NCBI GenBank assembly: GCA_900314465.1
Contig: OMVK01000039.1
Span: 1-51,665 of the forward strand
DNA length: 51,665 nt
Direction: 5' to 3'
Source of the DNA: an uncultured bacterium
GTDB taxonomy: Bacteria; Bacillota_I; Bacilli_A; RF39; UBA660
The notes under the pieces were generated by a model that had not been told where the DNA came from, did not search any database, and worked only from the letters and a program-made list of their open reading frames with translations. Made by a program: the position numbers and the translations under genes. Positions 6,309 to 51,665 of this stretch are shown piece by piece (within the stretch, counting starts at the first letter, position 1; every line of letters starts with the position of its first letter).

Positions 6309-6908
6309 ATGGATTATCAAAACGATAACGAACTAATTGAAATGGTATCTGATAATTCTGAAGAAGCAAGAGATTATTTATATAATAAATATTCGTATAT
6401 CGTAGATATTATTATTAATAAATATCGTACTAGTGCTAGTTATTTAAATGTCGATATGAATGATTTAAGACAAGAAGCTTTATTAGGTTTTTCAGATGCT
6501 TTAGTAAATTATAATCAAGATAAAGATACTAGTCTTTCAACTTTTATTAGTTTATGTGTTGAAAGAAGAGTTGGTAATTATATAAGAAAATATAGTACAA
6601 ACAAAATGAAACAAGAAGGCAATGCTCTTTCTTTAGATATGAATGTAGGAAAAGATGAAGATTTACCTATTCAAGATGTAATTGGTATGCCAAACTCAAA
6701 TCCTGAAACCAAGATGGTTGATAAAGAAGAAACAGAAAGATTAAATAGAGAGATTAAAGAAGCATTAAGTCCTTCGGAATATGAGATATATGAATTATTA
6801 ATAAATGATTTTAGCTATGAAGATATTGCTAAAATAACTAATAAACAACCAAAGCAAGTTTATAATATGATATATCGTATTCGTAGCAAAGTTAAAGATT
6901 TATTATAA
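6309..6908 (+). CDS. sigH: Sigma-70 family sigma factor, SigH-like
   Basis: DLRQEALLG, FISLCVER and YEDIA..KQVYN..YRIR motifs; sits at the conserved position between mrnC and secE. Confidence 0.8.
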   Translation: MDYQNDNELIEMVSDNSEEARDYLYNKYSYIVDIIINKYRTSASYLNVDMNDLRQEALLGFSDALVNYNQDKDTSLSTFISLCVERRVGNYIRKYSTNKMKQEGNALSLDMNVGKDEDLPIQDVIGMPNSNPETKMVDKEETERLNREIKEALSPSEYEIYELLINDFSYEDIAKITNKQPKQVYNMIYRIRSKVKDLL

Positions 6909-6998
6909 AATTATTGCATTAAATACTTCCATATGCTATATTATTGGTGTACACGGAAGTGTTTTTTTTATACATGAATTTTAAGAGGAGTTTTAAAC

Positions 6999-7499
6999 AT
7001 GAAAAAGAAAAGCAATGAAAAAAATGAAAAAAAAGAAACTATCGAAGAAAAAGATAATTCTGATGTAAAAACTAAAAAAGCAGCAAAAGAATTAAAAGAA
7101 CAAGAAAAGAAACAAGAAAAAGAAGAGAGAAAAAAGTTTGAAAAAGAAGAGAAAGCTAAAAAAGAAGCTGAAGAAGAAAAATATGAAGAAGAACGTGAAA
7201 AAGTAGAACAACAAATTGATGATTTACTAGTCAAACGTGATGATGCAAAAGATAATAAAGATAAAGAACAAGTAAAAGAATTAAATAAAGAAATCAAAGA
7301 ACTTAAGAAAAAAAGATCTGATATTGGCAAAGAAGATTCTTATTTACACCAAGTAAAAGAAGAAATGAAACTTGTTCGTTTTCCAAGCAAACAAGAAGTA
7401 ATTAAATATTCGATTGCAACACTTGTATTTATTGTGTTCTTTGGTTTATTCTTTTCGCTTATTAATGCAATATTTGCATTTATCAAAACATTATTTTAA
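6999..7499 (+). CDS. secE: Preprotein translocase SecE with a long K/E-rich N-terminal extension
   Basis: C-terminal VKEEMKLVRFPSKQE plus a single TM helix; immediately upstream of nusG. Confidence 0.88.
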   Translation: MKKKSNEKNEKKETIEEKDNSDVKTKKAAKELKEQEKKQEKEERKKFEKEEKAKKEAEEEKYEEEREKVEQQIDDLLVKRDDAKDNKDKEQVKELNKEIKELKKKRSDIGKEDSYLHQVKEEMKLVRFPSKQEVIKYSIATLVFIVFFGLFFSLINAIFAFIKTLF

Positions 7500-7513
7500 A
7501 AGGGGAACATTGT

Positions 7514-8053
7514 ATGGAAAAGTTATGGTATGTTGTTAATACTTATTCAGGTCATGAAGATTCAGTAAAAGAAAAGCTTATGCAAAGAGCATCATCAATG
7601 GGATTTGATGATTATATATTTAGAGTTATTGTTCCAACAGAAACTGTAGTTGAAACTACTAAAGATGGAAAGAAAAAAGAAGTTCAAAAGAAGTTATTTC
7701 CTGGTTATGTTTTAGTAGAAATGATTATGACTGATGAAGCTTGGTATGTTGTAAGAAATACTCCAGGTGTAACAGGTTTACTTGGTTCATCTGGTAAAGG
7801 TGCAAAACCAACTCCAATTCCACCACAAGAAATTGAAAAAATATTAGTAAATATGGGTATGTCAAGAGTTGATGCTGATACTGAACTTAAAAAAGGTACT
7901 AAGGTTGATATTGTTGATGGTCCATTTAAGGGTATGAGTGGTGTTGTTGATACAGTTGATAATGATAATAATAGATTAACAGTAATTATTGATTTATTTG
8001 GTCAAGAAACTCCTGTCGAACTAGAAACATTCCAAATAAATATTGCAAGATAA
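7514..8053 (+). CDS. nusG: Transcription termination/antitermination factor NusG
   Basis: WYVVNTYSGHE, FPGYVLVEM, VRNTPGVTG and KOW motif DGPF. Confidence 0.98.
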   Translation: MEKLWYVVNTYSGHEDSVKEKLMQRASSMGFDDYIFRVIVPTETVVETTKDGKKKEVQKKLFPGYVLVEMIMTDEAWYVVRNTPGVTGLLGSSGKGAKPTPIPPQEIEKILVNMGMSRVDADTELKKGTKVDIVDGPFKGMSGVVDTVDNDNNRLTVIIDLFGQETPVELETFQINIAR

Positions 8054-14225: not shown

Positions 14226-15395
14226 ATGACAAGAGAAAAATTCGATCGTAGTAAACCACATGTTAATATTGGTACTATTGGTCACGTTGATCATGGTAAA
14301 ACAACTTTAACTGCTGCTATTTCAAAGGAATTCTCAAAAAATCCTATGGCTTATGACCAAATAGATGGAGCTCCAGAAGAAAAAGCACGTGGAATTACTA
14401 TTAATTCTGCACATATTGAATATGAAACTGCAAAGAGACATTATGCACACGTTGATTGCCCAGGACATGCTGATTATGTTAAAAACATGATTACAGGTGC
14501 TGCACAAATGGACGGTGCTATCCTAGTTGTTTCAGCTGCTGATGGTGTTATGCCACAAACTCGTGAACATATCTTACTTGCTCGTCAAGTTGGTGTTCCA
14601 AAAATTGTTGTTTATTTAAACAAGGTTGATCAAGTTGATGATCCTGAAATTCTTGACTTAGTTGAAGAAGAAGTAAGAGATTTACTTGAAGAATATGGTT
14701 ATGATAGAAATTGTCCAGTTATTAGAGGTTCAGCTCTTAAGGCTCTTGAAGGAGATCCAGAATCAGTTAAGTCTATTCATGATTTAATGGATGCTGTTGA
14801 TGAATATATTCCAACTCCTGAAAGAGATAATGATAAACCATTCTTAATGCCAATCGAAGATGTATTCACAATCTCAGGTCGTGGTACTGTTGTAACAGGA
14901 CGTGTTGAACGTGGAGAAGTTAAGATGAATGATGAAGTTGAAATCGTTGGTCTAAGACCTACTCAAAAATCAGTAGTTACTGGTATTGAAATGTTCCGTA
15001 AGACTCTAGATTTCGCTGAAGCTGGTGATAATGCTGGTATTCTATTAAGAGGTATCGCAAGAGACCAAGTTGAAAGAGGACAAGTTTTAGCTAAACCTGG
15101 AACTGTTACTCCACATAAGAAATTTAAATGCCAAGTTTACGTATTAACTAAAGAAGAAGGTGGACGTCATACTCCATTCATGAATAATTATCGTCCACAA
15201 TTCTACTTCAGAACTACAGATGTAACTGGTGTTATTGAATTAAATCAAGGTACTGATATGGTTATGCCTGGTGATAATGTAGACTTCTCAGTTGAATTAT
15301 TAAGCCCAGTAGCACTTGAAAAAGGAACTAGATTTGCTATCCGTGAAGGTGGTAAAACAGTTGGTTCTGGTGTTGTAACTGAAATTATCGACTAA
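14226..15395 (+). CDS. tuf: Elongation factor Tu
   Basis: [21 protein letters not shown] and GSAL motifs. Confidence 0.99.
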
Positions 15396-44133: not shown

Positions 44134-44640
44134 AATTAATATAAGAAATGAGTGATTTCTATGAATTTCGACTTTAAAAATTCACTTGTAGGTTATGATG
44201 AATCAAATACAAAAGATTTATTAACTAAGATAAAGCAAGTAGTAGATGATACTAATACAAATATAAGTGCATCTATGAATGAAGTAATAGATGGAATAGA
44301 TTATTACTGAGTAGGAATGGGTGCAGAAGCATTCAAAGAAGTCCAAAGAGAAGATATAAAAGAACTATCAAATGCCTTTTCTGAAATATCACAAGGAATA
44401 CAAAATAACATATTAATTATGGGACAGGATGTAGTAAACAGTGATAACGTAATAGCAGCAAGTATAAATGGATTAATTGACACAAATACATCTGGTTATA
44501 CAGGAAATAATTCAGTTAATCAAAGTATTAGTGCTAGTGTAAATGGCGGTATTCCATCAAATATTTTAGATAGCATTGTTAATGCTTTGGAAAGAACTGG
44601 AGCAACACTTGCAACAGCAGGAACATATGCTGGTAAGGGT
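44134..44640 (+). repeat. Direct repeat copy A (pairs with 46352-46858, offset 2218)
   Basis: Nearly identical for ~440 bp (I see one synonymous TTC/TTT difference), then progressively diverging. Confidence 0.92.
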
Positions 44641-45616
44641 GTTATGTCTTTTACAGAGAATATTGGAGATGCAGGTGTAATAGCATGTACAACAATGCTT
44701 ACACCGGTAACAGCTCTTTTTGATGGAGTTGGCTATTTAACATCAAACTTAACAGGTTCAAGTTATGAACCAATAACTGATGATGTTTGGAATGCAACAA
44801 AAGAACTAACATCTCAAAATTTAACAATGATGTATTTGATGATATTGAAAATTCGCCATATGGGAAATGGCTTCAAGATAATGCATATGGCTATGATACA
44901 GTCAAGGATGTTCCTACACTTGTTGGATATATAGGTGCGGCAGTTGGTACAACAGTTTTAACTGGTGAATTAGGAAGTGCAGCTAGCTTGTCATCAGCTT
45001 CAACAGGTGCGGCCTTAGGATACAATCGTTACCAACAATTAGTACAGGAGTAGGAGCTACAAATGCAGTAATAAACGCAGTAGCAAGAACTGGAGTCAGT
45101 GCGGTTAAAGGAGCATCAAATGTTCCACTTGGATCTGTAGCTCATTTGTTATATGATCCATCTACAGAAAAGCAACAAGAGTTACTAAACACAATAAATT
45201 ATGATGACAATGGTAATCAAATAAACAACAAGGCATGGGATGATTTAACATTAGGGGAAAAAACTAGTTTATATTATGAAGATGCTGGTGGAACAAAACA
45301 AATAATTTCATCAGGTGAATATTCTGCATTAGCAAATGGTACAATCGAGGCAGTAAATCTTGGAATCGATTTAAAAAATAACATTAAAGATAATATAACT
45401 AATCGTGAACAGCCAAGTAACACATCTGGTATCAGAGCACCAATTCTAAAGCCAGCACGTAAATTAAAAGATACAAGAGTAGTATCGAAAATACTAAATA
45501 TATTAGATAAAGCAACATCTAATAGTTCAAAAAATATGATAGATTTAACTATCAACTCTGCTTATGATGCGGAAAAAACAAAAATATCAGATGAATTTGA
45601 TACAATAGATTCATAA
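44161..45616 (+). pseudogene. Degenerate WXG100-led toxin paralogue (in-frame TGA 44308-44310; frameshifts near 44826 and 45027)
   Basis: The three track ORFs (44317, 44787, 45146) align collinearly with the 46379-48796 protein. The C-terminus differs and has no ART motifs. Confidence 0.85.
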
Positions 45617-45669: not shown

Positions 45670-45984
45670 ATGAATAATGTGAAGTATTTACCAATAGGTA
45701 CAGTAGTAATGCTAAAAGGTGGTAAAAGAAAAATAATGATAATTGGATTTGAAATGAGTTCAAATAAAGATGGAGTAAATAAACATTATGATTATGCTGG
45801 ATGTATATATCCAGAAGGAATGCTTGATTATAATACTGGGTTATTTTTTAATCATGATCAAATAGAAAAAATATATTATATGGGTTACAAAAGTGATGAA
45901 CACATACTATTTGATAAAGCATTAAAAGATTATATTAAAAAAGAAAATGATAACATAAATCAGGAGAGTAACAATGAACAATAA
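45670..45984 (+). CDS. DUF4176 domain protein (T7SS-associated)
   Basis: YLPIGTVVML, IMIIG, YDYAGCIYPEG and FFNHDQIEKIYYMGY motifs. Confidence 0.9.
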   Translation: MNNVKYLPIGTVVMLKGGKRKIMIIGFEMSSNKDGVNKHYDYAGCIYPEGMLDYNTGLFFNHDQIEKIYYMGYKSDEHILFDKALKDYIKKENDNINQESNNEQ

Positions 45985-46357
45985 AACATATTTACCAATA
46001 GGCACAGTAGTAATGCTAAAAGGTGGTAAAAAGAGAATAATGGTTATAGGTTATGAAATGCAATATGTAGATGACAAAGGTGTTAAACAACGTTTTAACT
46101 ATGCAGGATGTTTATTCCCAGAAGGATTAATAAACACCAACGAAGTGTTATTATTTAATAATAATCAAATAGAAAAAATATATTTTACAGGTTACTCTGA
46201 TGAAGAACAAAAACAATTTAATACTAAATTACTAGAGTTGATTAATAAACAACTAGTACCTAATGTTAATAATCAAAATAGTACAACATTAGGAGAACCA
46301 AATTTGTATTCAAATGATAGACCACAAATAACACAAGTTAACAGTACAAATAATTAA
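45974..46357 (+). CDS. DUF4176 domain protein, second paralogue with an N/Q-rich tail
   Basis: YLPIGTVVML, YAGCLFPEG and LFNNNQIEKIYFTGYSDEE motifs. Confidence 0.9.
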   Translation: MNNKTYLPIGTVVMLKGGKKRIMVIGYEMQYVDDKGVKQRFNYAGCLFPEGLINTNEVLLFNNNQIEKIYFTGYSDEEQKQFNTKLLELINKQLVPNVNNQNSTTLGEPNLYSNDRPQITQVNSTNN

Positions 46358-46858
46358 TATAAGAAATGAGTGATTTCTATGAATTTTGACTTTAAAAATT
46401 CACTTGTAGGTTATGATGAATCAAATACAAAAGATTTATTAACTAAGATAAAGCAAGTAGTAGATGATACTAATACAAATATAAGTGCATCTATGAATGA
46501 AGTAATAGATGGAATAGATTATTACTGAGTAGGAATGGGTGCAGAAGCATTCAAAGAAGTCCAAAGAGAAGATATAAAAGAACTATCAAATGCCTTTTCT
46601 GAAATATCACAAGGAATACAAAATAACATATTAATTATGGGACAGGATGTAGTAAACAGTGATAACGTAATAGCAGCAAGTATAAATGGATTAATTGACA
46701 CAAATACATCTGGTTATACAGGAAATAATTCAGTTAATCAAAGTATTAGTGCTAGTGTAAATGGCGGTATTCCATCAAATATTTTAGATAGCATTGATAA
46801 TGTTTTGGAAAGAACTGGAGCAACAATTGCAACAGCAGGAACATATGCTGGCAAAGGT
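46352..46858 (+). repeat. Direct repeat copy B
   Basis: Matches 44134-44640. Confidence 0.92.
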
Positions 46859-48796
46859 TTAATGTCTTTTGGTGAGGATGTTATGGATGCTGGTGTAATA
46901 ATAGGTGCAGCTGCACTTACACCAACAGCATTACTTACTGATGGAGCTGGTTATATAGCATCAAAATTAACAGGTGCAGATTATGAACCAGCAACAAAGG
47001 CAATGTGGAGTGCAGCAAAGGGTTTTACTTCAAAAACACTGACAGAAGATTTGTTTAATTCAATGGAAGATACATCTTATGGAAAATGGCTTCAGAATAA
47101 TGCATATGGATATGATACAGTAAAAAATGTTTCAACATCAGCTGGTTATATGGCTGGAACAGTTGGAGCAACAATTTTAACAGGTGGATTAGCAGGAGGT
47201 ATATTAGGACTAACTCCAGCAGCAACAGGTGCATTACTTACTGGTGCAACATCACTTGGAAGAAATACTACTGCAGCTTGGAGAGATGGTGCATCAACAA
47301 CAGGAGGACTTGCCTATGGTAGTGTAATGGGTGCAAAAGATGCCGCAATGGGATATGTAGCATTACCAACAATTGGTACAGGTGTGAGTGTTGCAAATTC
47401 AGCATTAAATGCGGTAGCAAGAACAGGTCTTAATGCAGCACAAAGTGCACTTGATGTTCCACTTGAATCAGCAGCACATTTGTTATATGATCCATCAAAA
47501 GAAAAACAAAATGAATTATTAAATTTAACAAATTTTGATGAAGATGGTAATCAAATAAATAATAAGACATGGGAAGATTTAACTATATCAGATAAAGCTA
47601 AATTATATTTTGATGAAGCTGGTGGAACAAAGCAAATGATTACATCAGTAGCAACATCTGCATTAGTAAGTGGAGGGATGGAAGCTGCTAATTCATTGGT
47701 TAGTGCAAAACAAAATTTAGATTCTGATAATATTAGTACAAAAGAATCAACTGTAGACTTAGAAGATACTCTAGAGATGGAACCTGTAAAAGAATCAACT
47801 GTAGACTTAGAAGATACTCTAGAGATGGAACCTGTAAAAGAATCAACTGTAGACTTAGAAGATACTCTAGAAATGAACCCTGTAAAAGAATCAACTGTAG
47901 ATTTAGATGATACTCTTGAGATGGAGCCTATAGATTTAAATAAAAACGATTCAAACTCAACTTTAAATAATAAAAACAATAATGAAAATATAGTAACAAT
48001 AAAAGAAACAAAAGATACAACATTTGACGGAAATGCAAAGTCATTTAAAGATGTACAAAGATTCCTTCAACCACGATCAGAAGCAATTACAGCAATGTCT
48101 AAACATTTTGGTGATGCCGGTGAAAAGGTAAATGATCTCTTTAGAAAGGGTATGACTGCAGAAGAAATAATGAATGTTTTGCCAGATAACGAAAAGGGAC
48201 AATTTAAAGAATATTTAACCAACACTCATGCTGGACAATGGCTTTCAGGTCTATCTAAAGATCAAATTAAGTCAATCAATTATTATTCATCTATAAGTTG
48301 CGATGGAATACAAAATGAGCTTAGAGCTGCAACGACTGATGCAGATATAATTATTAATAGGGACAAAGTTAAAAATATAGATTCTGCCCTTGAACAGTTT
48401 GGTGGAACAAGAGAAGATGCTGTTTTATATAGAGGAGTTAACCTTAATTCATTTGCAGCTCAAGAAGGTTATGGCGAACTATTTAATGGAGTAAATGCAA
48501 ATGATCCTGTAGAAATATATGCGACACTTTCAACATTAACCGGAAAAACTTTTCATGATAAAGCATATATGAGTGCCTCACCTGGCCTAAATACATGTTT
48601 TAAAAATAGAAAAATAATACTAGAAATTGATACACCAAAAGGAAGTAAAGGAGCATATATTAATCAAATATCTGATTTTTACAACTCCGAAAATGAGTTT
48701 CTTTTACCACGTGATACATCATTAAAAATGGCAGGTGTAGCACTAAAAAAGATTGGTAATGATGAAAAAGTTGTTGTTCATTGTAAATATGAATAA
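46379..48796 (+). CDS. WXG100/LXG-like polymorphic toxin with a C-terminal VIP2-like ADP-ribosyltransferase; in-frame TGA at 46526-46528
   Basis: ATG 46379 follows RBS GAGTGA and is in frame with the track ORF 46535. Features: YY*VG..AEAF, a G/A-rich hydrophobic middle, and LYRG, YMSAS, ENEFLLPR. Confidence 0.85.
47741..47932 (+). repeat. Four tandem 48-bp coding repeats (KESTVDLEDTLEMEPV)
   Basis: Units start at 47741, 47789, 47837 and 47885; the first two are identical. Confidence 0.95.
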
Positions 48797-49057: not shown

Positions 49058-50059
49058 ATGGTTAATAAAGAACAAATACAGTCTGGAATTTTTGGCTTTG
49101 TTGTAGGTGATGCTTATGGTGTTCCATATGAATTTTTAAAAAGAAATGATGAAAGATTAAAAAAAATCGAAGACATGAAGGCATATGGGACACACAATCA
49201 ACCATCTGGAACATGGAGTGATGATTCATCAATGACTTTATCAACAATGCAATCAATTGTTGATAATGATGGAAAGATTAATTATGATGATATAATGAAC
49301 AAATATGTTGATTGGGCAGTTAAAGCTAAATATACTGCAACCGATACTTTATTTGATATTGGAAATAGTACATATAAAGCAATAAATAAATATTTATCTC
49401 ATAGATATAGCCCGACTGAATGTGGTGGTAAATCAGTATATGAAAATGGTAATGGATCTCTAATGAGAATGTTACCTGTAATATTTGATTTGTATGATAG
49501 TGATTTAACAGACACACAAAAAAATAATATAATTAACGAATATTCATCATTAACTCATGCCAATGAGATAAGTCAAATGGGTTGTCACATCTACTATGAT
49601 TTTGTTAGTAATATAATGGATGGTCTTTCCAAAAATGAAGCATACGAAAAAGTTAAGCAAATAAACTATAAACAATACTATAATGATAGTTCCATAGAAA
49701 AGTATAAAAGAATACTAAATGGTTCATTAGATACTTTATCACAAGCAGAAATTTCATCGTCAGGATATGTAGTAGACACACTAGAAGCATCTATTTGGTT
49801 AATTTTACATACAAATAGTTATGAAGAATTAGTTAAAAAAGCTGTATCTTTAGGAGATGACACAGATACTGTTTCAGCAATTTCCGGAAGTATAGGTGGA
49901 CTAATTTATGGATACAACAATATTCCTAAAGAATGGTTGGATAAGATAAAGAAAAAAGATCAAATCAATCAATTATGTTTAAATTTTACTGAATGTCTAA
50001 ATAAAAAAAACATAAACAAAGAAGATAATTATAATGAATCATCTTGCACAAGAAGATAA
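49058..50059 (+). CDS. ADP-ribosylglycohydrolase (DraG/ARH family), predicted immunity
   Basis: GDAYGVPYEF, WSDDSSMT, GNGSLMR, THA and GDDTDT metal-binding motifs. Confidence 0.93.
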   Translation: MVNKEQIQSGIFGFVVGDAYGVPYEFLKRNDERLKKIEDMKAYGTHNQPSGTWSDDSSMTLSTMQSIVDNDGKINYDDIMNKYVDWAVKAKYTATDTLFDIGNSTYKAINKYLSHRYSPTECGGKSVYENGNGSLMRMLPVIFDLYDSDLTDTQKNNIINEYSSLTHANEISQMGCHIYYDFVSNIMDGLSKNEAYEKVKQINYKQYYNDSSIEKYKRILNGSLDTLSQAEISSSGYVVDTLEASIWLILHTNSYEELVKKAVSLGDDTDTVSAISGSIGGLIYGYNNIPKEWLDKIKKKDQINQLCLNFTECLNKKNINKEDNYNESSCTRR

Positions 50060-50114: not shown

Positions 50115-50483
50115 ATGAAGTATTATTATGGTGGAGATAGACACTATTCAATTGATTCAATAGAAGAAGTGTATTTAAATCTAAATAAAGAGATAGATAG
50201 AATAGATGCTATCATGAAAGATATTGAAAATCACATAAATGACTTAAAACCTAATTTTACTGGTGATGTAGCAAATGCATTTTATGAAAAGTTTAATAAC
50301 ATTGATTCTGAATATAAAACAATTAAAGATAATTTTAATAAATATGCAGATAGTTTATTAAAGATAAAAGATGCATATCATTATATAGATGAACAAGAAG
50401 TCAAGAAAATGGAAAAAATGACTGATGAACTTGTATCTAATCAAAAAGCTAGTATGGAAGCAAATTTAAATCAAAACAGATAA
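50115..50483 (+). CDS. WXG100-like protein (F-x-G variant)
   Basis: 122 aa helix-turn-helix pattern, central FTG..ANAF and a C-terminal YxxxD (YHYID). Confidence 0.75.
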   Translation: MKYYYGGDRHYSIDSIEEVYLNLNKEIDRIDAIMKDIENHINDLKPNFTGDVANAFYEKFNNIDSEYKTIKDNFNKYADSLLKIKDAYHYIDEQEVKKMEKMTDELVSNQKASMEANLNQNR

Positions 50484-50508: not shown

Positions 50509-51665
50509 CGATATGAGCCCCGTTTCTTGGACAAAATAGAAACGAGGTTTTGTATGAGTAAATTAACATATGAAGATAAAATAAATTTGTATAATGATAG
50601 AAAAAAGGAATTAGTGTTGCATCGTTATCATTAAAGTATAAAGTTGCTGAGTCAGTAATCAAATATTTGATATGCTTAATTGATAAACATGGGTATGGTA
50701 TCTTAAAAAGAGATAAAAATAAATATTATTCTTCCCACGAAAAAGAAAGAATAATTTATAGAGTATTATTAAATAATGAATCCACAAATTCAGTAGCAAT
50801 AGATGAAGGACTTGCAAGCAGAGGTATGTTATGTAATTGGATTAAAAAATATAAAGAAAACGGGTATAATGTAGTTGAACGAAAGCGATGACGTCCAACT
50901 ATAAAAACAAAGACTAAAGTTAAGAAAAGCGAAATAGACAAAGAAAAAATTAAGAGACTTGAAGAAGAAAATTTATATTTGAAGGCAGAACTTGAATACA
51001 CAAAAAATTGAGAGCCTTAGTTCAAGCAAGGAAGAATCGACAACAGAAGAAAAAACAACTATTGTTACTGAACTAAGGCCTAAATATGGTTTAAAGATTC
51101 TTCTTAAAGTGTCAGGTCTTGCAAGATCAGTATATTATTACACTTTATCAAAGATTGATAAAGATAATAAAAATAAAGAAGTTATTAAGAAGATAAAAGA
51201 AATATTCATTAAAAATAAAGAGAGATATGGATATCGTAGAATAACACTTGAACTTAAGAATCAAGGTTATAATGTTAATCATAAGAAAGTTTATAGGTTA
51301 ATGCATAAACTTAATCTAAAACCACTTAAACTAAATAAAAGAAGATATTCTTCTTATAAAGGAATAATTGTAAAAATAGCCAATAATATTATTAAAAAAG
51401 ATTTCTTTGCAAACAAGCCAAATAGAAAGTGGTATACAGATGTTACTGAATTTAATCTAAGGGGAGAAAAAGTCTATCTTTCACCAATTCTAGATGGCTA
51501 TAATGGTGAAATTGTTTCTCATGACACATCAAGATGTGCTGATTTGAATCAGATAAGAAGAATGCTGGATAAAGTTTTTAATGGTAAAAAGTTAGATGGA
51601 TTAATACTTCATTCAGATCAAGGATGGCAATATCAACATAATTATTATCAGCAAAGGCTTAAAAA
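50509..51665 (+). mobile_element. IS3 family (IS150-group-like) element, orfA disrupted, truncated by the window end
   Basis: IR-like end GATATGAGCCCCGTTTCTTGGACA. HTH orfA starts at 50554. The orfB frame is open from ~51001 to the end, with YGYRR, WYTDVTEF and HSDQGWQY. Confidence 0.9.
50554..51011 (+). pseudogene. IS3 orfA pseudogene
   Basis: Frameshift in the A-run near 50601-50607 and TGA at 50889-50891 where RGRP is expected. Confidence 0.75.

Follow-up and report, generated by a model that had tools for sequence, protein, structure and literature searches.

An in-frame TGA was found at the tryptophan of the W-x-G turn in the export domain of a predicted type VIIb-secreted ADP-ribosyltransferase toxin, in a genome that uses the standard genetic code. 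Among the explanations weighed, we tentatively place first a leaky nonsense allele, which would still yield toxin if tRNA-Trp decodes UGA at a low level, with a young pseudogene second and a termination-restart product in two chains third; both the readthrough and the activity of its product are inferred. The window, that is, the whole stretch of 51,665 nucleotides analyzed, corresponds to contig C79 of a 1.15-Mb genome with 25% GC, which is assembled in 87 contigs and rated 94.5% complete. Translation from ATG 46379, and from the equivalent ATG 44161 of a second copy, proceeds through 49 codons to the TGA, as an earlier note on this DNA had recorded with exact coordinates. Past the stop the same frame continues GTA GGA ATG GGT GCA GAA GCA TTC and remains open across 753 codons, as far as 48796 (Table 1).

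Table 1 Coordinates of the toxin gene, its partial copy and neighboring genes in the window
Feature	Position	Strand	Basis or remark
Shine-Dalgarno-like GAGTGAT upstream of ATG 46379	46368..46374	+	Pairs with the 3' tail of the 16S (window 29483 region)
First 49 codons (MNFDF...GIDYY), encoding helix 1 of the export domain (WXG100 type)	46379..46525	+	Aligns with residues 1-50 of paralogues and family
In-frame TGA in place of the W-x-G Trp codon	46526..46528	+	Same in the contigs from runs X2, X5, X7 and X19
In-frame ATG, possible restart codon, 6 nt past the TGA	46535..46537	+	SD-like pairing -5.0 kcal/mol, spacing 0
Open frame of 753 codons spanning helix 2, middle domain, repeats and toxin domain	46535..48796	+	Indel-free and without new stop on contigs of four runs
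Four tandem 48-nt repeats encoding ESTVDLEDTLEMEPVK, toxin middle region	47740..47929	+	Contigs of all four runs break here
ADP-ribosyltransferase domain	48227..48781	+	PF03496, 99.7 bits (cut-off 23.4), residues 617-801, profile 8-190 of 196
ADP-ribosylglycohydrolase gene, next long gene	49058..50059	+	PF03747, 207.7 bits, E 3.8e-61
Two DUF4176 genes directly upstream	45670-45984, 45974-46357	+	PF13780, E 4.6e-25 and 2.3e-26
Small WXG100-like protein gene downstream	50115..50483	+	PF06013, 26.8 bits, just below the 27.3 cut-off
Copy 1, decayed remnant: same 49 codons, TGA 44308-44310	44161..45409	+	205-codon frame 44317-44934, then pieces in two other frames
Tract identical to 44134-44572 save one mismatch (gene-conversion tract)	46352..46790	+	Copy-to-copy comparison

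The locus is read as encoding a type VIIb secretion system (T7SSb) polymorphic toxin together with its chaperones and, likely, its immunity protein, and export of the product is predicted, because the C-terminus matches PF03496, the ADP-ribosylglycohydrolase, DUF4176 and WXG100-like genes lie alongside, and the genome encodes EssC. The C-terminal match exceeds the curated cut-off across nearly the whole domain, placing it in PF03496, and within it we picked out by eye an R / S-x-S / E-x-E arrangement, which we take to be the motif of ADP-ribosyltransferase domains. By its position, the ADP-ribosylglycohydrolase gene is likely the immunity gene. In the Tre1-Tri1 pair of Serratia an ADP-ribosyltransferase toxin is likewise accompanied by an ADP-ribosylhydrolase immunity protein, and the order seen here, toxin then ADP-ribosylglycohydrolase gene, resembles that pair, although the export context is type VII here and type VI there. 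The EssC ATPase was identified on contig C66 (C66:3989-7906; TIGR03928, 880.7 bits, cut-off 778.4), and YukC/EssB was not found in the genome; EssC in the genome and likely chaperone genes beside the toxin together mark the protein as a predicted T7SSb substrate.

DUF4176 proteins are described as chaperones of type VIIb secretion toxins (PMC12478183), and by analogy the two DUF4176 genes likely encode chaperones of this toxin; their place directly upstream, with EssC in the genome, matches the arrangement of toxins with DUF4176 (Ltc) chaperones (PMC12478183). Two DUF4176-like genes also lie upstream of a homologue in the same-genus genome G006. The overall build, a helical N-domain, a middle region, a variable C-terminal toxin and an adjoining immunity gene, is that of T7SSb polymorphic toxins of the LXG/WXG100 type such as TelA. 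Unlike in LXG toxins, the N-domain here has about 105 residues, is WXG100-like rather than Pfam LXG, and has a stop as its W codon.

Elsewhere in the genome, C66:3989-11905 encodes EssC, then a WXG100-like protein of about 110 residues, another WXG100-like protein and a 547-residue protein whose N-domain, paralogous to that of the toxin, is fused to a CHAP domain and which is likely a second T7SS toxin; the protein of about 110 residues and the CHAP fusion supply the two C66 paralogues of the toxin N-terminus. Within the toxin gene the copy number of the ESTVDLEDTLEMEPVK repeat may vary, given where the contigs of all four sequencing runs break. Past the toxin locus, a transposase-like gene (HTH_21 plus rve integrase core, 50992-51663) runs off the window end. 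Promoter-like sites were not above chance (41 versus 45.9 expected).

That the TGA sits at the tryptophan of a W-x-G turn was claimed from the sequence in the earlier note and is borne out by the protein family. A HMMER search returned 104 homologues, mostly of about 105 residues, of which 87 were aligned with two sequences from this genome (89 rows), the 17 longer (multidomain) proteins being left out. In each of the 88 other rows the TGA column holds W, and all 89 rows have the G two positions later; in the toxin itself V-G is encoded, and the W would stand in the column only if UGA were read as Trp. Two paralogous domains on C66 read TAT/TAC TGG GTA GGT at the aligned site, and the G006 homologue that shares the two-DUF4176 synteny has TVWVGAS. 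The family profile matches EsxA of S. aureus (2vs0, E 3.9e-5), with WvG aligned with WEG, and an AlphaFold model of a C66 paralogue (44-47% identical) shows a helical hairpin of about 100 residues of the WXG100 type, with a helix at 14-50, a turn at W51-V-G53 and a second helix at 54-109, and pLDDT above 90 in the core.

The toxin N-domain itself gave zero Pfam matches at E<=0.01; PF06013 (WXG100) reached that level in 51 of the 89 family members, with the C66 paralogue at 22.7 bits (below the 27.3 cut-off), and the LXG domain (PF04740), unmatched in the toxin, did so in four of the 89. In a Foldseek search against the PDB the top matches were WXG100 proteins, none with E<=0.001, and a first protein-database search returned a single match, the cluster of the C66 paralogue. 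With the toxin as query, no orthologue outside the species was found among metagenome contigs or genome contigs, and a single-protein search of 40 relatives gave distant homologues only, in G006. Across the 151 family genomes searched, TGA within the domain was confined to the two copies described here.

These two copies are not independent evidence, as the earlier note had cautioned: from 46352 to ~46790 (44134-44572 in copy 1) the two differ at one position in about 440 nt, and after this tract their identity drops to 70-80% with indels. Because this tract has been kept identical between the copies, both TGAs are one TGG>TGA event shared through gene conversion, so that the proposal of a single mutation spread by duplication or conversion was right on origin. 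In three of the four runs the shared tract assembled as a single collapsed contig at 1.5-3 times the flank depth. An earlier statement that the gene is intact past the stop holds for copy 2 and fails for copy 1, in which a 205-codon frame is followed by pieces in other frames (three different frames in all), middle-region residues are missing and the toxin domain is absent; this remnant was also seen in runs X5 and X7. A G-to-A change turning TGG into TGA is favored in an AT-rich (25% GC) genome. As a separate case, a RhuM-family gene (PF13310) on contig C50 (~6634-7648, minus; L009:634-1648) is broken into three frames and contains two in-frame TGAs, both aligned with Trp of intact homologues in relatives. 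Since the change thus occurs twice in a dead gene, TGG>TGA is also an ordinary route of decay.

The possibility that the lineage decodes UGA as Trp, also put forward in the earlier note, was examined across the genome, and for this genome such a reassignment is refuted; the standard code is used. Both prfA and prfB are present, and prfB (465 bits, cut-off 370) retains the classical +1 frameshift site GGGAGG...CTT TGA C, for which UGA must act as a stop. ARAGORN called tRNA-Trp with anticodon CCA only (contig C21:874-947), and tRNA-Trp(UCA) was not found in this 94.5% complete genome, a completeness at which absence is not proven. A second tRNA-Trp(CCA), cut by the contig end, occupies the last 53 bases of contig C55 (L106:1501-1553, minus) and differs at one T-loop base, which would fit either a second gene or a strain variant. 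The 782 ORFs of at least 150 residues with a good coding score end in TAA (551), TAG (144) or TGA (87).

For conserved tryptophans, ORFs from 1.167 of the 1.343 Mb of G006 were compared with this genome by tblastn. Unfiltered, 855 columns with W in G006 corresponded to 647 TGG and 7 TGA; after filtering by coding score, 805 W columns corresponded to 621 TGG and 1 TGA. None of the seven TGA columns is genuine, because all lie antisense to better-scoring ORFs. A first ORF-based scan for in-frame TGA was noisy: the toxin copies and the RhuM remnant aside, its candidates were either gene boundaries or antisense frames. None of the three signs that had been named for recoding, namely loss of prfB, a tRNA-Trp(UCA) and TGA at other conserved Trp sites, was found in this genome.

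We therefore give very little credence to an incipient or partial UGA=Trp decoding genome-wide in this lineage. In its favor, two members of the same class (G035 and G040) have one release-factor match each, below the prfB cut-off, and that of G040 contains an in-frame TGA; in five of nine tRNA-Trp genes from the genus, the top pair of the anticodon stem is mismatched; and in-frame TGAs in coding context here fall only at Trp codons, in the toxin and twice in RhuM. Against this stand the retained RF2 with its UGA frameshift site, the tRNA and Trp-column results above, the 87 likely genes terminated by TGA, and the two frameshifts that the RhuM gene has acquired beside its TGAs. Class relatives that appear to be without RF2 and congeners with a mismatched 27-43 pair in tRNA-Trp (PMC13092985) recall code 4 lineages, but unlike these the present genome has kept RF2, uses TGA as a stop and has no TGA at a conserved Trp elsewhere. 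G035 and G040, relatives with small genomes, probably read UGA as sense.

Still more remote are the readings of the TGA as a selenocysteine codon or as a fault of assembly or sequencing. No selB candidate exceeded the cut-off in the genome, the best (202 versus 242 bits) being the window ORF 14226-15395, presumably the EF-Tu gene, and ARAGORN called no tRNA-Sec; a selenoprotein was rejected on these two grounds. A technical error is contradicted by the identical base in contigs of four independent runs.

The distribution of the allele was followed in public sequencing runs. At least half of the sampled words of 46100-47100 were present in 19 runs, and any part of the stretch in 20 entries from 11 studies, one of which may have supplied this DNA. 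We compared four runs, each from a different study (X2, X5, X7 and X19; bovine gut in two cases, sheep gut in one, the other unlabelled), runs X20-X24 with a small share of words being left out of the population comparison. TGA was kept in all four, because no difference is listed at 46526-46528 on their contigs, which span 46352-46635 or 46352-46656. The allele is not private to one genome but fixed in the samples seen. In one contig of run X2, at low depth, the match to the window starts at 46527, after 33 unrelated letters; this sequence joining at the stop codon was not found in the window's own genome.

Behind the stop, the copy-2 contigs have no gaps and show 15 variable sites (two further X2 differences being left out of this count), of which eight are synonymous, seven nonsynonymous and none a stop. 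With 77.7% nonsynonymous sites, the probability of seven or fewer among 15 is 0.0085 (dN/dS ~0.25, site model); allowing for 10 transitions and 5 transversions, about 10.8 nonsynonymous changes are expected and P rises to 0.03. Resting on 15 sites, three haplotypes and a divergence of about 0.3%, the synonymous excess is suggestive, not decisive, because the strains lie so close together, and the variation behind the stop may have been imported from functional alleles. Signs of continued usefulness behind the stop are, in sum, modest.

These data bear on the possibility that the toxin is a young pseudogene, killed by a nonsense mutation that spread by drift or hitch-hiking in a near-clonal population and with decay still pending; the TGA was perhaps copied by gene conversion from an upstream copy that was already dead. 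We regard this as possible but doubtful, and less probable than the leaky allele. With strains differing by about 0.3%, few disruptions would be expected yet, no orthologue outside the species was found that would date the change, and the decayed copy 1 with its identical tract, the two TGG>TGA changes in the frameshifted RhuM remnant and the G>A preference of a small AT-rich genome all fit a gene on its way out. The synonymous excess, the complete lack of indels or stops on contigs of four runs and the strong Shine-Dalgarno (SD) sequence retained at ATG 46379 are less readily accommodated, and so is the nature of the mutation, a random nonsense change being restorable by misreading in only a small share of cases. 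The earlier note's fallback, a simple recent pseudogenisation, sits poorly with a TGA found in four runs of four studies, a synonymous excess and an undisrupted frame.

The preferred reading, a leaky nonsense allele, would operate as follows. In the export domain of the ADP-ribosyltransferase toxin, a single G-to-A change made a TGA of the Trp codon in the W-x-G turn, and most ribosomes would halt after 49 codons. A minority would read UGA by means of the ordinary tRNA-Trp(CCA) and thereby reinstate exactly the tryptophan that was lost, giving a normal, exportable toxin of 805 residues at low level. This small amount of toxin would in turn keep the rest of the gene, and the immunity gene, under selection.

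Several observations lead us to favor this account, namely the W in 88 of 88 homologues with TGG in the paralogues, the standard code, the single origin of both TGAs, the persistence of TGA in four of four runs together with the synonymous excess and the lack of indels or new stops, and the strong, normally spaced SD at ATG 46379, whose duplex of -10.2 kcal/mol is stronger than that of 73% of 583 genes. TGA is, moreover, the sole stop type whose misreading restores the original residue, and under simple mutation models just 2-10% of random nonsense mutations in the toxin gene would be TGG>TGA and 0.3-1.7% would strike this codon, figures that are weakened because the findings were chosen for looking odd. 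Finally, UGA is leaky in E. coli and B. subtilis: it is reported as the leakiest stop, read mostly as Trp, in E. coli (PMC11126739), and a readthrough of about 6% is cited for TGA in B. subtilis (PMC7918605). As side observations on initiation, GAGTGAT occurs upstream in only 8 of the 583 genes, and prfB (C53, L002:798-1911) shares the toxin's AAGAAATGAGTGAT ribosome-binding motif.

The immediate context of the stop gives a mixed picture. The base at +4 is G, and the preceding five nucleotides are ATTAC; a G after the stop raises readthrough and a T-rich upstream sequence lowered it in E. coli (PMC11126739). The present case, as judged from sequence, thus resembles the leaky UGA of E. coli and B. 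subtilis in that misreading would restore the original Trp and a G follows the stop (PMC11126739, PMC7918605), but differs from the E. coli case in its T-rich upstream context. Against the leaky allele count this ATTAC, which resembles the readthrough-lowering context, and the lack of RNA structure after the stop (fold of 46515-46625, z +0.36), as well as the two TGG>TGA changes in the dead RhuM gene and the absence of a TGA in the domain anywhere else among the 151 family genomes.

The tRNA that would have to read the codon was inspected on the ARAGORN drawing, using our own numbering. In the tRNA-Trp(CCA) of C21, position 24 is an A, and 27-43 and 28-42 are both G.U pairs. In E. coli, UGA is read more often when the tRNA has A24 and a loosened top pair (PMC13092985), and by analogy these features provide a lead toward UGA readthrough. 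[quoted passage not shown] An A27/C43 mismatch, leaving a 4-bp anticodon stem, is present in tRNA-Trp of five of nine same-genus genomes. TGA ends 45 of 427 long ORFs in the present genome versus 19 of 447 in G006, whose tRNA-Trp has the 4-bp stem.

A further proposal of the earlier note was that readthrough is programmed and throttles toxin output. We consider it distinctly improbable that selection maintains the UGA as an internal throttle, the one stop misread as Trp letting only a trickle of a dangerous ADP-ribosylating toxin through, with the nearby AUG possibly adding a non-exportable product. Programmed readthrough is recognized by a stimulating RNA structure or a conserved context past the stop, and the fold across this stop (z as above) offers no such signal. 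If a throttle did exist, it would represent a natural intermediate in which TGG-to-TGA is tolerated before any change of code, in a lineage with a readthrough-prone tRNA-Trp and class relatives that would already read UGA as Trp.

Alternatively, translation might terminate and restart, which would split the hairpin at its turn into two chains, a 49-residue helix-1 peptide and a 753-residue protein starting MGAEAFK, and the hairpin may reassemble without the turn. Readthrough and such a split are both possible, and the sequence alone does not separate them; we hold the split to be unlikely, and more so than a young pseudogene. The distance of +6 nt from stop to start falls inside the range of -8 to +10 nt that is taken as predictive of termination-reinitiation, and pairs of this kind often encode subunits of one complex (PMC10666635). 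The break lies in the turn between two helices, and a Met at the restart column occurs in one of the 89 family members, namely the toxin itself. The downstream ATG had been described as having no properly spaced ribosome-binding site; the spacing is indeed 0, but an SD-like GAGTAGGA does exist, abutting the ATG (21% of the 583 genes have pairing as weak or weaker). This sequence can be counted in favor of a restart, and its position counts against, a spacing of 0 being seen in only 20 of 438 strong-SD genes. The near-invariant W (88/88) and G (89/89) suggest that the turn matters, and neither residue would be retained in the two chains. Among the 104 homologues there was no natural split form besides the copy-1 ORF of this genome, P0008. 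A complex prediction for the 49-residue peptide with the first 90 residues after the ATG gave a score of 0.02 and a mark of 0.32, and it weighs neither for nor against binding.

In-frame stops that persist under selection have already been described in bacteria (PMC7918605, PMC9122581), and what is new here is the example in a T7SS toxin. With its lone stop, lack of other decay, low dN/dS and persistence, the gene resembles these conserved in-frame stops or 'pseudo-pseudogenes' (PMC7918605, PMC9122581), and it differs from known ones in that the stop lies on the signature residue of a toxin secretion motif and has been duplicated by gene conversion. Should the leaky allele prove true, it would be a natural case of a nonsense mutation that lowers, and does not abolish, the output of an interbacterial toxin, and the allele persists in gut populations of cattle and sheep. 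For the evolution of the genetic code, TGG>TGA is the nonsense change likeliest to be tolerated, as seen here in a genome that is related to UGA=Trp lineages but uses the standard code, and no code change is shown. For annotation, gene callers break the toxin up, giving a stub of 49 codons and an ORF of 753 codons without the export helix, and the 205-residue ORF of copy 1 is already listed in a public protein library as if it were a protein of its own.
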